The notes under the pieces are model-generated. The model was given only the letters and a program-made list of their open reading frames with translations. It was not told where the DNA came from and searched no databases. Both the position numbers and the translations under genes were made by a program. A stretch of DNA of 64,000 nucleotides from Nostoc sp. Its GTDB lineage: Bacteria; Cyanobacteriota; Cyanobacteriia; Cyanobacteriales; Nostocaceae. Positions 34,215 through 42,444 of the stretch are shown here, piece after piece. The DNA is taken from assembly GCF_036917415.1 (NCBI RefSeq), contig NZ_JBALDJ010000114.1, positions 227,209 through 291,208 of the forward strand, written 5' to 3'. Each line of letters opens with the position of its first letter. Position 1 is the stretch's first letter.

Positions 34215-34517
34215 ATGAAAACTACTTCAGATTTAATTCCAGAATTTGAAAAACTATTCAGACAAAAATTACAACTAAATAATTGTAAACTAAGAAAGAA
34301 AAGACAAGAGAATAATTATGAAATTATTACTCCAGCTAAAGACATCTTTTTGATGTATTGGTCTGAGTTTCCAGAAGTTAACTTAATATATCAGGCTATA
34401 GGGGTACGCACTCAGCAAACTGGAGTTTATGAGCGAGCTATTCGTTCGCACATTAGTTTTTGTGTGAGTAGCATCCAAGAAAATCCTAGCCCGGAATCAC
34501 CATTATTGATGAAATAG
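34215..34517 (+). CDS. Conserved hypothetical protein
   Basis: 100-aa ORF (EFEKLFRQKLQLNNC...YERAIRSHI). Confidence 0.7.
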   Translation: MKTTSDLIPEFEKLFRQKLQLNNCKLRKKRQENNYEIITPAKDIFLMYWSEFPEVNLIYQAIGVRTQQTGVYERAIRSHISFCVSSIQENPSPESPLLMK

Positions 34518-34705
34518 CTGAGACTCAGATAACACAGACAATATTTACTAAGCTCTCGCCAGTTTTCTTATATAACTGACGAGAGTTAATTGCCGAAAAT
34601 GTGTTTATCAAGAGACAAAAATGCAATCCGAAAAAAAATCAAGCTCGAGATCGGCTAGATTATAAAACCTTGTTAGCCAATGCAAAGCAAGCCTTAAAAC
34701 TGGTA

Positions 34706-34734
34706 GCGATGTCTACGACGGGCTACGCCTACGC
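34706..34734. repeat. SDR5-type 21-nt element in a HIP1 site
   Basis: GCGAT+GTCTACGACGGGCTACGCCTA+CGC. Confidence 0.85.
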
Positions 34735-34958
34735 CATTTGACTTCTTTTACCAAAATGTAGAAAATCGCGTTGAGAACCTCCTACATCTCAACTTAAAGA
34801 AAAGCGACCACCCGGTTTCACTTCCAAATTAGGTCACTAAGTACAGCCCACCACAAAAAGGGTATGGAATTTAATTATTCGTAGGTTGGGTAGAACGAAG
34901 TGAAACCCAACATCAAGCCTCGATATTTCCGAACCCCTTTTACGGTGACGTGTACTAA

Positions 34959-34984
34959 GAGCCTATTTATAAAGTAAATCTAAA
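34959..34984. mobile_element. Orphan IS5 (IS1031-group) terminal repeat
   Basis: taa|GAGCCTATTTATAAAGTAAATCT matches the IS end at 42445 at 21 of 23 positions. Confidence 0.6.
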
Positions 34985-35112
34985 CTGGAAAAAGTCAAAA
35001 TCATCAGCTTTTCTTAGTGCCAAAGACTCCTGTAACATATATATGCTTTTACCCAAAAAATAGCCAGTTACGAACCATAGAAAGTTAAAAAACTTGGCAG
35101 AGTGAGCGCTGA

Positions 35113-36042
35113 CTAATGTGTTCTAGCTGTGATATAGTCTGCGATCGCCATTAGAGGTTGCGCCTTTTCACCGAAGCAAGCTAATTCTGCTTTTGCTGAG
35201 TCAACCAATTTTTGGGCTTTGAGTTTTGATTCCTCGATACCCCACAAACTGGGATAAGTTACTTTTTGCGCCTTTTGATCTTTGCCCGGAGTTTTACCGA
35301 GTTCCTCCTGAGTACCAGTCATATCAAGCACATCATCAATAATTTGAAAAGCTAGACCAATATTACGAGCATAGTGAGAAAGCGGCAGCAGAATTTTATC
35401 GTCCACTCCCGCCAATAGTGCTCCTGATAAAACAGACGTTTCCAATAAAGCACCAGTTTTGTGGGCATGAATAAAGTTGAGAGTTTCGATGTCAATATTC
35501 TGCAATCCCTCAGATTGTAAATCAACAACTTGACCGCCAACTAGACCTGTTGCTGCTACTGCATGAGCCAACTTAGCAACAACCTGCAACAACTGCTGGG
35601 CAGCAACTTTTTTGGTTTGAACCACAAGAAACTCAAAGGCGTAAGCTAAAAGTGCATCACCAGCTAGAATGGCAATGTTTTCGCCATAAATTTTATGGTT
35701 AGTTAACTTTCCGCGTCGAAAGTCATCATTATCCATTGCAGGTAAGTCGTCATGGATTAGAGAAAAGGTGTGAATCATTTCCAGCGTACAAGCAGTAGGC
35801 ATCGCCATCTCGATTGTGCCTCCAGCAAGTTCACAACCGGCAAGACATAGAATCGGGCGTAGGCGCTTTCCTCCAGCCAGCAGGGAATAGCGCATAGATT
35901 CGTAGAGTATTTCTGGATGGGCTATAGTAATTGACTGTTCAAGCGTTGATTCAACTTGCGATCGCCGTTCTGATAAATAGGCTTTAAGGTCAAAAGTAGT
36001 TTCTTTAAAAGATGACCATTCAAAGATTTGAGTATTCACCAT
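35113..36042 (-). CDS. Short-chain polyprenyl diphosphate synthase (CrtE/IspA-like, predicted FPP-type)
   Basis: [56 protein letters not shown]. Confidence 0.92.
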
Positions 36043-36269
36043 AAATATTTATCTTCAAAATTACAGTACTACACCTAATCGACAAAATCTGGCTGACAGG
36101 AACTATTAAACAACGCTGCTTTAGGAATTAATATTATGTTTGTTTGATTACTTATAATTACCGTAATCTATGCAGAAATAGGAAAACCCTCTTTCCCCCA
36201 GCTAAGAGCCCCCTGCTCCCCTGCCTCCTATTTGTATCAACCTTAAAGTGAAACGGTATTACCCTTCCC

Positions 36270-37679
36270 TCAGCGCCCGATTTCTACGTCTTCAAGGATG
36301 CCAAGTGCATCGGGGATGAGAATGGCTGCACAGTAGTAGGCGCTGACAAGATAAGAAATGACGGCTTTTTCGTTGATACCCATGAATTTGACGGACAAGC
36401 TGGGTTGGTATTCATCAGGGATACCCGTTTTGTGTAGACCTATCACCCCTTGGTTTTCTTCTCCGACACGGAGTACCAAAATAGAGCTAGTACCCTCCTT
36501 GGTAATTGGAATTTTGTTACAAGGAAAAATCGGATAGTTGCGCCATGCAGGTACAATCTTTCCATTGACCTCCCTGCTTGGGGAATAGATTCCACGACGG
36601 TTACACTCCCGCCCAAAAGCAGCGATCGCGCGAGGATGAGCAAGGAAAAAATGGGATTTGCGCCGCCGAGAGAGCAATTCATCAAAATCATCTGGAGTCG
36701 GTGGCCCGGTGCGGGTAAAGATGCGTTGCTTAAGATCGGCATTGTGCAACAACCCGAAATCAGGATTATTCAGCATTTCGTATTCTTGCCGTTCCCGCAA
36801 CGCTTCGATGGTCAGCCGTAGTTGTTGCTCCGTCTGGTTCATGGGTTCGTTGTAGATGTCAGCAACTCGCGTATTCACCCGTAAAACGGTTTGAGCGACG
36901 CTTAACTCATACTCCCGTGGACTCAAGTCGTAATCAACAAATGTCCTGGGTAACTCAGTTTCCGGACTATGACCAGCAGTCATAATGATCTCGGCCTGAT
37001 TATGCTTATCCTGGGGTTTGCTCAACATAGCTCTAAAGCGATCGACCTGAGTCTGCAACGCTTCAGACTGGTTCATCAACTCCCGAAACGCCTGTACTGG
37101 CAAAGACAAAACTATGCAGCGCGTAACAGCTCTGAGGCTAACCTCCCAAGTGTCCTGAGATAGAACTATAGCTTCGCCACCAAAACAATCGCCGTCAGCT
37201 AAGATATCCCGTAAAGCTTCCGCCTCATATTTGCCTGCCTTCAGCTTATTAACTTTACCACGAGCAATTAAGAACACGCGATCGGCTGGTTGACCTTCCT
37301 GTACAATTACCTGACCAGGGGCAAATTCTTGTTGCACAAAGCGGTCTGCCAAGGCGTTGAGTACCTCAATATCCTCAAACCCGCGCAGTAAAGGGAGTTC
37401 ACAAAGTGCTTGGGGAATGACCCGCACCTGAGTCCCTGTATTGGTAAAGCTGACTCGTCCATTACCAACATCATAGGTCAAGCGACGGTTAACCCGATAG
37501 GCCCCACCCCTGATTTGCACCCAAGGCAACATCTGTAACAACCACCTAGGGGTAATGCCCTGCATCTGGGGCGGAGTTTTCGTGGTTTTGGCTAAATTCC
37601 GCGCCCCTTTCGTGCTTAAGCTGATCTGGGGTTGCCCATTTTCTTGGTCTAAATCTGGTCTAATCGAAACATTTGTCAT
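36270..37679 (-). CDS. Family 2B encapsulin shell protein with inserted cNMP-binding domain (Cnb), copy 2
   Basis: [16 protein letters not shown]...YRVNRR, a central cNMP domain, then [25 protein letters not shown]...ERQE...GPPTPDD. Confidence 0.9.
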
Positions 37680-37783
37680 AAAGTTAACGTTTCATGCGAC
37701 TAAATTTACTCTCCTAACAGAGAGCATTGGAGGGTAGGAACGAACGACCGTTCGTTCCTACTTTAAAGAGGATGTCCGACTAC

Positions 37784-39193
37784 TTAGAGACCAATTTCTA
37801 TATCTTCAAGGATGCCTAGTGCATCAGGAACGAGAACGGCTGTAGAGTAGTAAACACTAACCAGGTAGGAAATAACGGCCTTTTCGTTAATCCCCATAAA
37901 ACGGACAGACAAACTAGGCTGATATTGATCGGGAATATTCGTTTTGTGCAGACCAATAACACCCTGGTTGGTTGCTCCCACGCGCATTAACATAATGGAG
38001 CTAGTACGCTCTTTCGTAACGGGAATCTTATTACAAGGATAGATGGGAATACCACGCCAAGCCGGAATTGCACTGTTACCCATCGGGATAGGATCGGGAT
38101 AAAGTCCAAGGTGGTTACATTGCCGACCAAACGCCGCAATGGTGCGGGGATGAGCGAGGAAAAAGCTCGGTTCTTTCCAAACAATGGAGATCAATTCATC
38201 GAGATCGTCGGGAGTTGGGGGACCACTGCGGGTAAAAATGCGTTGTTTGAGGTCAGCATTGTGTAGCAGTCCGAAGTCACGATTGTTCACCATTTCGTAT
38301 TCTTGGCGTTCCCGTAGGCCTTCGATGGTGAGCCGTAATTGTTCCTCAGTCTGGTTCATGGGTTCGTTGTAGAGGTCAGCAACCCGTGTATTAACTTGCA
38401 AAATAGTCTGAGCCACGCTTAACTCATATTCCCGTGGATTCAGTTCATAATCTGCAAACGTCCCAGGTAATACTGCCTCTGGGAAGTGGTCGGCAGAAAT
38501 TCTGATATCAGCTTCCCCTTCTTGGTTTTTGGGTTGCCTCAACTTTACTCTGAATTGATCCACTTGCGCTTGCAGAGCCTCAGACTGGTTAACCAGGTTC
38601 TGAAAGGCTGTTTGAGGTAGAAACAAGATGGTGCAACGGGTAAGAGCAACGAGGGTGACATCCCAAGTATCCTGAGATTCCACTAAAGCGTAATCACCAA
38701 AATGGTCACCATCAGCTAATACAGTCAAAACAACTGGCTCGTCATACTTGCCTGGACTAATTTTATTGACTCTACCATGGGCAATCAGCACTACTTGATC
38801 AGCCGCTCGACCTTCTTGTATGATGACATCTCCGGCTGCAAATTCTCGTTGCACAAATTGACGAGCTAAGGCGTTTAATACCTCGACATCTTCAAATCCC
38901 CGTAACAAAGGTATCTCAGTGAGTTCTTGAGGGATGACCTGTACCTGGGTCCCTACATTGCTAAAGCTGATCCGTCCATCTCCAACCGTATAGGTTAAGC
39001 GACGGTTGACCTGATAGCTACCCCCCACGGTTTCTACCCAAGGCAGCAGTTTTAAGAGCCACCGTGAGGTAATTCCCTGCATCTGGGGTTGGGTTTTGGT
39101 GGTGCCTGCCAATTTCCGCGCCGCTTCGATCTGCAAACTCATTGGCAGTTGCTCAATTTGATTTTCTATAGGAGTGTTTGCTGCATTAGTCAT
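37784..39193 (-). CDS. Family 2B encapsulin shell protein with inserted cNMP-binding domain (Cnb), copy 1
   Basis: Same architecture as the paralog at 36270, also 469 aa. Confidence 0.9.
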
Positions 39194-39261
39194 GATTAAT
39201 CTCCATCAGTAATGTTAGTTGACAAGTTATTTGATTGACCAGAATTGGGACTCAGATTGAG

Positions 39262-41616
<2,355 letters not shown>

Positions 41617-42444
41617 CTATTTAAACCTATCATCTTAAGCTTATTGTCTTGATTGAAGTCGTGTTGACAAAAAAGAATACATGCGTCAGTCGTCAGAATA
41701 AGCGTATGAATTCTGTACGAGTGGCGGATGAATAAATGGTGAAATACCACACAAAATTGAAAATTTGGTGGTCTACCCTTCTCTACCAGAGGCTGCGCCA
41801 ACGAAAACGTTAAAGGCGAACAATCAGTGGTGAGTCTGTAGCTTGCTTGCCATAGACTATCCCCTACTAATTGATTCTGACTTCTGAATTCTGAATAGCT
41901 GAATTATTCTTCAATTTGATATTTGCGGTTAATCTTTGATGCAATGAAGTTACTCCTTGTAATTAAAAAATTCACAATTGACTCTTGTTAAGTGGCTTGT
42001 TAGTGAAACTTTTATTATGCAAAACTCTTAATAAATATATATTGATTAACTATCAATTACTGCTTTTGAAGGACTAGGTTCACGTGCCGCAGCAACTCGA
42101 ACCCACTAAGAAAATTTGTCATGCACCTTCAGCCAATTATTATATTTCCTCTACTCCAAAAATAGCCATAAACAGTTGTTTATAAGACAATTTCAGCTTT
42201 ATCAATAAAATGCAATGAGAGTTCAAACATTTAGTTATCATTAAGTAGACACTTAAGACTGTATACATATCTGGATTCAAAAAATACTATTATTAGCATA
42301 GGTTAATGCAAACTTTTTTATATTCATTGACTATTTACTAACTATCAATTTACAGCTTATCAACAGGATAATCAAGAGAAACTACAAAATATCCTACTTT
42401 TCCCACCTTTCCTACTTTTTTACGTAAAATAATATTGTATTTAA

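Follow-up and report, generated by a model that had tools for sequence, protein, structure and literature searches.

A phenylalanine-type CrtE paralog in the geosmin cassette of Nostoc sp. as a predicted non-encapsulated farnesyl diphosphate synthase

The fourth gene of a geosmin cassette in Nostoc sp. encodes a short-chain polyprenyl diphosphate synthase of the cyanobacterial CrtE lineage with phenylalanine at the chain-length-determining position, and this protein is best explained, with a probability that we put at roughly two in three, as a non-encapsulated farnesyl diphosphate (FPP) synthase that supplies the cassette. The gene lies in a window of 64,000 nucleotides (the whole stretch of DNA that was analysed; contig NZ_JBALDJ010000114.1, positions 227,209 to 291,208 of the forward strand), of which a preliminary description had been made from the letters alone. 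We propose that the enzyme is a soluble homodimer-type trans-prenyl diphosphate synthase of the CrtE (type-II) lineage, in which Phe93 would close the elongation pocket one isoprene unit early, so that elongation would stop at FPP (C15) and not at geranylgeranyl diphosphate (GGPP, C20), to which the housekeeping cyanobacterial CrtE is expected to run through with little release of FPP. Upon expression of the cassette the synthase would likely raise the free FPP pool, and FPP would reach the geosmin synthase inside the shell by diffusion through the pores; from this we infer a benefit for geosmin output. The features concerned, all on the minus strand of the window, are as follows.

39262..41613, minus strand: GeoA, the two-domain geosmin synthase and FPP consumer, 783 aa (NF041168, 1239.8 bits, cut-off 1200; two Terpene_syn_C_2 domains)
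37784..39193, minus strand: first shell gene, family 2B encapsulin with cNMP-binding domain (NF041163, 737 bits, cut-off 400; PF19307 and PF00027)
36270..37679, minus strand: second shell gene, family 2B encapsulin with cNMP-binding domain (NF041163, 761 bits, cut-off 400; PF19307 and PF00027)
36043..36269, minus strand: spacer of 227 bp that separates the synthase gene from the second shell gene (spacers of 12 cassettes aligned)
35113..36042, minus strand: CrtE-type (type-II) short-chain polyprenyl diphosphate synthase, Phe-type paralog, predicted FPP synthase (open reading frame, 309 aa)
35764..35766, minus strand: codon TTT for Phe93, fifth residue before the first aspartate-rich motif (FARM), the chain-length-determining position (from the sequence)
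35731..35751, minus strand: FARM, DDLPAMD, residues 98-104, type-II with a two-residue insertion, intact (from the translation; motif class after PMC9796789, Table 1)
35323..35337, minus strand: second aspartate-rich motif (SARM), DDVLD, residues 236-240, intact (from the translation)

The gene order is geoA, first shell gene, second shell gene and synthase, with all four genes on the minus strand; the synthase gene is thus co-oriented with the encapsulin genes and directly downstream of them, as the preliminary description had said. Three cargo-loading-type peptides of the form (G/S)(P/S)TGLGT are present in the GeoA translation. In the two-component family 2B operons of the terpene cyclase/prenyltransferase (TC/PT) type (Andreas & Giessen 2021, PMC8346489; Dutcher et al. 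2025, PMC12407261; the M. xanthus GeoA shell, PMC13739066), a cyclase that carries loading peptides is combined with two cNMP-domain shell genes, the second of which is followed directly by a prenyltransferase gene; the cassette of the window has this layout.

The synthase open reading frame begins with ATG and encodes 309 aa that match Pfam PF00348 (E 1e-58). Among the NCBIfam models, the protein scores above the cut-off for the CrtE equivalog NF045685 (524.5 bits, cut-off 460) and for the FPPsyn subfamily NF045485 (366.5 bits, cut-off 275) and below that for the IspA equivalog NF007877 (238.4, cut-off 321), and members of its Phe clade carry the public annotations "geranylgeranyl diphosphate synthase CrtE" or "polyprenyl synthetase". 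Such labels would suit an enzyme that is still essentially a GGPP synthase, i.e., a redundant or condition-specific CrtE in which Phe is tolerated without change of product. The Lys-, Ala- and Met-type paralogs tested also scored above the NF045685 cut-off, so this model is blind to chain-length classes.

The residues that precede the first Asp of the FARM are His (-1), Ile (-2), Leu (-3), Ser (-4) and Phe (-5), in the context HTFSLIHDD, and the Phe stands at the codon at which the preliminary description had placed it, five residues before the first DDxxD. With Pro-Ala as the FARM insertion, the chain-length and FARM region fits the type-II bacterial FPP synthase signature (F/Y)X3H-DDX3(hydrophobic)D and not the (M/A)SX2H of type-II GGPP synthases, for which the full signature is (M/A)SX2H-DD(hydrophobic)PX(hydrophobic)D (PMC9796789, Table 1). 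IspA of E. coli and Geobacillus shares the former signature with the synthase, which scores above the FPPsyn subfamily cut-off; IspA is, however, only ~40% related, and the synthase arose independently, within the cyanobacterial GGPP synthase lineage. The nearest solved structures are those of cyanobacterial CrtEs (Synechococcus sp. PCC 7002, PDB 6SXL/6SXN; S. elongatus 7942 and Synechocystis 6803, PDB 7MY6/7MXZ), which the synthase resembles in fold, in length, in sequence (~63-70% identity), in a FARM with Pro-Ala insertion, in the SARM and CxxxC motifs and in the equivalog model that it passes. It differs from them in having Phe for Met at -5, with a predicted C15 rather than C20 product, and in being encoded away from folD, as a second copy in a specialised-metabolite cassette that falls in a separate clade. 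A gap-free alignment sets the Met of the solved CrtEs opposite Phe93 (S. elongatus CrtE, PDB 7MY6), so that Phe93 comes to lie on the pocket helix.

In cyanobacteria a single short-chain synthase is stated to be the rule, and in the case of S. elongatus CrtE, GGPP was the sole product in vitro (PMC9796789). [quoted passage not shown] 2020, PMC7261888; that paper is inconsistent in naming the aromatic variant, the abstract giving M87F, the methods and results M87Y). The general rule invoked in the preliminary description, that an aromatic residue at -5 stops elongation at C15, therefore has the backing of mutagenesis in a close homologue. On this analogy the final product of the synthase is very probably (2E,6E)-farnesyl diphosphate (C15), a prediction that goes beyond the general rule because the mutated enzyme is so near a relative. 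The synthase and the laboratory mutant have the same class of substitution at the same position; unlike the mutant, the change in the synthase is natural and fixed in its clade, and it is accompanied by further clade-specific residues, the near-diagnostic columns besides Phe93 being only four (K45I, I46L, A243G and A252P, with Gly243 and Pro252 located after the SARM).

The residue at -5 is Phe in 25 of 25 clade members and in none of the 75 other cyanobacterial CrtE-like sequences, where it is Met or Ala: the 60 housekeeping-type and other non-paralog CrtEs all have Met, in line with the Met that the preliminary description had assigned to cyanobacterial CrtE, and the 15 non-Phe paralogs have Met or Ala. 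Since Phe is invariant in the clade and absent from the other CrtE-like sequences, Phe93 is no chance variant. An unaltered GGPP product would be favoured by the remaining pocket positions mutated in Synechococcus 7002 CrtE, which are unchanged in the synthase (Ser at -4, the Ala of the FARM insertion and the Val two residues before the GQ motif), and by the CrtE equivalog score and database names given above. We nevertheless consider it very unlikely, since an enzyme of ~70% identity no longer formed GGPP once it had an aromatic residue there (PMC7261888), Phe is confined to and fixed in this clade, the gene lies beside a cyclase that uses a C15 substrate, and Met-type relatives occur in other terpenoid clusters. 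Related proteins with other residues at -5 were also seen. CrtE paralogs with Ala (P0069, P0082, P0094, P0105 and, in Tolypothrix campylonemoides VB511288, L119:9869-10894) may form the C25 product geranylfarnesyl diphosphate, by analogy with M87A of the Synechococcus 7002 enzyme, and a metagenomic CrtE paralog of 344 aa (P0029), with 80% identity to the synthase of the window, has Trp.

The genome of the window (7.36 Mb in 136 contigs) has three PF00348 genes, i.e., a solanesyl-diphosphate-synthase-type gene, a 310-aa housekeeping crtE and the synthase gene of the window. The separate housekeeping crtE, which the preliminary description presupposed, was found on contig C73 immediately downstream of folD and encodes Met at -5; the synthase gene is not at this usual folD-crtE neighbourhood. 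The two proteins are 63% identical and collinear end to end, so that the synthase has no extra domain. The same genome also encodes a second, single-domain terpene synthase of 344 aa (contig C28:20659-21246; L193:1285-2319) that weakly resembles several sesquiterpene synthases, in each case below the curated cut-off; this sesquiterpene-synthase-like protein could be another FPP user.

Both the synthase and the housekeeping CrtE retain a CxxxC motif upstream of the FARM (for the role of the motif see PMC9796789), a feature that would be expected if the synthase were a partner subunit forming a heterodimer with the housekeeping CrtE and shifting its product or activity, in the manner of the plant GGPPS-related small subunits. 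A geoA-linked paralog that looks non-catalytic is in keeping with such a role: in Lyngbya sp. CCAP 1446/10 a CrtE paralog downstream of geoA-enc-enc (L015:15859-16845) has Lys at -5, a degenerate FARM (NDLTGMD) and an intact SARM, and may be decaying or non-catalytic. We regard the partner-subunit role as highly improbable, because the synthase of the window has both FARM and SARM intact and is under purifying selection across its length; within the Phe clade pairwise dN/dS is 0.14-0.23, and all members have kept the two motifs. The Lyngbya form, moreover, is a singleton on a long branch that was recruited independently (only the Lyngbya genome itself matched when relatives of its motif were sought in the species-genome collection), and no "regulatory subunit" family is supported.

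The origin of the synthase was examined in a maximum-likelihood tree of 101 cyanobacterial CrtE-like sequences, with a quick version that included outgroups. The 25 Phe sequences form one clade (UFBoot/SH-aLRT 100/99), which is nested in a clade of 40 members (98/92), the others being second copies, of Met or Ala type, in Nostocales genomes; the housekeeping genes of Nostocales fall in a clade of their own (100/88). Constraining the paralogs and the Nostocales housekeeping genes to one clade gave a tree worse by 74.6 log-likelihood units (AU p 0.0015, for a grouping that was named after the tree had been seen), and the nearest relatives outside the paralog lineage are the housekeeping CrtEs of Thermosynechococcaceae and Acaryochloridaceae. 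From the separate clades and the AU result it follows that the synthase is no recent duplicate of the resident crtE but a branch of an older paralog lineage; the preliminary description, in which a duplicated crtE had been retuned, was right in kind and is refined as to the origin of the gene.

Two members of the paralog lineage were inspected, and both lie inside terpenoid gene clusters with private MEP-pathway genes. In Scytonema sp. NIES-4073 (L105:3582-16942) a Met-type second CrtE is clustered with dxs, ispG, ispH, ispE, a P450, a Rieske protein and a squalene-hopene-cyclase-like protein, and in Tolypothrix campylonemoides VB511288 the Ala-type paralog is clustered with dxs, ispG, ispH, ispE, dxr, a Pyr4-like membrane terpene cyclase, a Rieske oxygenase and a glycosyltransferase. 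Given these locations, the Phe branch can be seen as the member that belongs to the geosmin cassette in a family of prenyl synthases each dedicated to a gene cluster.

The neighbourhoods of the best 80 species-representative loci related to the synthase were mapped. All 24 loci with Phe at -5 belong to Nostocales, and in 23 of them the Phe-form gene comes directly after geoA-enc-enc (some loci are clipped by contig ends), so that the survey of geoA neighbourhoods envisaged in the preliminary description finds the paralog almost always in the same place. The exception is Iphinoe, where the Phe gene lies among unrelated genes, beside an amine-oxidase/desaturase-type gene, and the geoA cassette is on another contig without a synthase gene. 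None of the Met-type loci among these 80 has geoA, and most are beside folD. The four-gene cassette is also present in Nodularia spumigena CENA596 and on a 320-kb plasmid of Nostoc sp. NIES-2111; on the latter (AP018186.1; L196:1363-8906) a 261-aa gene of the SQS_PSY family (squalene/phytoene synthase-like), a potential FPP user, precedes geoA.

A motif census was carried out on 389 species genomes of the window's family, using a geoA pattern validated on 38 of 38 geoA loci. The Phe motif was found in 27 genomes from 9 of 68 genera, always once and always with the codon TTT, and the geoA motif in 107. Both motifs are present in 25 genomes, Phe without geoA in 2, geoA without Phe in 82, and neither in 280; the odds ratio for the association is 43 (Fisher p 2e-13, a value that overstates independence because the genomes are related). 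The two motifs share a contig, at a distance of 5353-6083 bp, in 22 genomes. Two further genomes have them on separate contigs, apparently through a break in the assembly: shell genes are immediately upstream of the synthase gene in the short loci L087 and L095, whose match to these two genomes is presumed. Of the two genomes with Phe only, one is an 80%-complete assembly with a short contig (L086, again a presumed match) that also has shell genes upstream, and the other is complete, with the Phe gene alone, no geoA and its sole terpene synthase 2 Mb away.

These outliers bear on the possibility that the synthase is a general FPP (or mixed GPP/FPP) synthase serving squalene and hopanoids, other sesquiterpene synthases or prenylation, and that its proximity to geoA reflects shared mobility of the cassette. 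The lone Phe gene of the complete geoA-less genome and the unlinked gene of Iphinoe would both be accounted for, and other potential customers are at hand in the additional terpene synthase of the window's genome and the SQS_PSY-family gene upstream of geoA on the NIES-2111 plasmid. We think a general role unlikely, since geoA is present in 25 of the 27 carriers, at a fixed distance in 22, and only 2 of the 282 genomes without the geoA motif have the Phe form. The word "dedicated" in the preliminary description accordingly holds for most carriers, the complete geoA-less genome and Iphinoe being the cases that it does not cover.

The Phe gene is not a requirement for geosmin synthesis in this family, as 82 of the 107 geoA-bearing species (~77%) are without it and have a single CrtE; the synthase is an accessory, which would act as an optional booster of the cassette. 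Decayed remnants of a synthase gene were sought in 12 geoA cassettes that have none, and none was found. In the GeoA tree, carriers and non-carriers of the synthase are interleaved in both cyanobacterial GeoA clades, which, together with the single origin of the Phe clade, points to repeated loss. A different arrangement was seen in Microcoleus spp. (L017, L018, L021), where a Met-type CrtE gene and geoA are on opposite strands, 3-7 kb apart. In the one Microcoleus genome searched (that of L018) this is the only CrtE-like gene, and at the same locus a second geoA-like gene (56% identity) is immediately upstream of geoA.

If the synthase supplies FPP, it probably does so from outside the shell. 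No TGLGT-like peptide is present in its translation, as the preliminary description had remarked, and it has no terminal extension: it is matched in length by the 310-aa housekeeping CrtE, its residues 15-309 align to S. elongatus CrtE, and just 14 residues precede the region aligning to the crystallised enzyme. The rival view, that the synthase is a second encapsulin cargo, with both the formation and the cyclisation of FPP in the shell interior, draws on the gene position, because in the published two-component family 2B operons a putative prenyltransferase cargo gene is directly downstream of the second shell gene (PMC12407261). The published prenyltransferase systems of family 2B are almost all actinobacterial (888 of 900), and their IdsA/IdsB-like enzyme, a presumed cargo, has a disordered N-terminal domain of 50-100 residues (PMC8346489); the enzyme of the window, unlike these, derives from CrtE, lacks any extension and is unlikely to be loaded. 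Against the cargo polyprenyl transferase model NF041169 the synthase scores 242.7, below the cut-off of 450, while an actinobacterial geoA-linked synthase (L026) passes with 473.4. With neither extension nor loading peptide nor a match to the cargo model, we hold loading into the shell to be hardly credible. An outside supplier is mechanistically sufficient, since the M. xanthus shell does not hinder the entry of FPP (PMC13739066).

The actinobacterial synthases are an unrelated group. In Pseudonocardiales and other Actinomycetota (L026, L034, L036, L037, L040, L068) a prenyl synthase of 33-35% identity follows the second shell gene of geoA-encapsulin clusters, with ELVHNFSLLHDDVMDGD. We had considered the Phe at -5 of these proteins as convergent evidence for a C15 product and rejected it, as their FARM is type-I (DDVMD), and in this form the pair of Phe at -5 and Ser at -4 is compatible with GGPP synthases as well; their chain length cannot be read from the motif. 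They support only the more limited statement that geosmin/encapsulin clusters recruit their own prenyl synthase.

The synthase would be co-expressed with geoA. In the alignment of spacers from 12 cassettes, the ~75 nt abutting the synthase ATG (36043-36117, minus strand) are conserved, and the rest of the spacer differs in both length and sequence (53 to 386 bp among cassettes). The conserved block may be a promoter of the synthase's own or a leader element, as opposed to strict operon co-transcription. A scan of 34500-42200 for consensus promoters and terminators stayed at chance level, with nothing in the 227-bp spacer upstream of the synthase gene, and no Rfam match was found in that spacer. 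Elsewhere in the cassette, Rfam RF02735 (Sernc350, a Saccharopolyspora antisense sRNA) scored above the gathering score at 37144-37640 and 38649-39157, both on the plus strand, opposite the two encapsulin genes; these matches probably reflect the conserved coding sequence of EshA-type genes, the alternative being an antisense RNA.

Much of the framework is already known in general terms: precursor synthases embedded in clusters, control of chain length by the residue at -5, and the cyclase-plus-prenyltransferase type of encapsulin operon. The cyanobacterial geosmin cluster was described by Churro et al. as geoA plus two cnb genes, and in the open-access papers and bioRxiv we found no mention of a fourth gene in such clusters and no description of a natural FPP-type CrtE in cyanobacteria. 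A more far-reaching combination can be imagined, in which the synthase is the first native FPP synthase of cyanobacteria and one item in a Nostocales toolkit of cluster-embedded CrtE paralogs, with the residue at -5 (Met, Ala, Phe or Trp) tuned to the product length of each cluster, and in which it docks on the outside of the two-component shell, e.g., at the cNMP-binding domains, and hands FPP through a pore in an inside/outside metabolon; taken as a whole we consider this combination doubtful and lend it little weight. The step posited by the preferred reading, of a non-encapsulated FPP synthase supplying the geosmin cassette, is predictable from known rules and fills a recognised gap in cyanobacterial terpenoid metabolism.

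If this reading holds, the single label given by the CrtE equivalog annotation would cover paralogs of the C15, the C20 and probably the C25 type, and engineers would have a native cyanobacterial FPP synthase to use in place of an imported IspA. The Phe-type gene may also serve as a marker to distinguish high- from low-output taste-and-odour strains. The known range of the cyclase-plus-prenyltransferase type of encapsulin operon would come to include cyanobacteria, the enzyme there being probably no cargo. The source of FPP in cyanobacterial sesquiterpene producers has so far been left to "leakage" from a single GGPP-making synthase, and a natural Met-to-Phe form in the geosmin cassette would be a concrete answer for about a quarter of the geosmin-capable Nostocaceae species.
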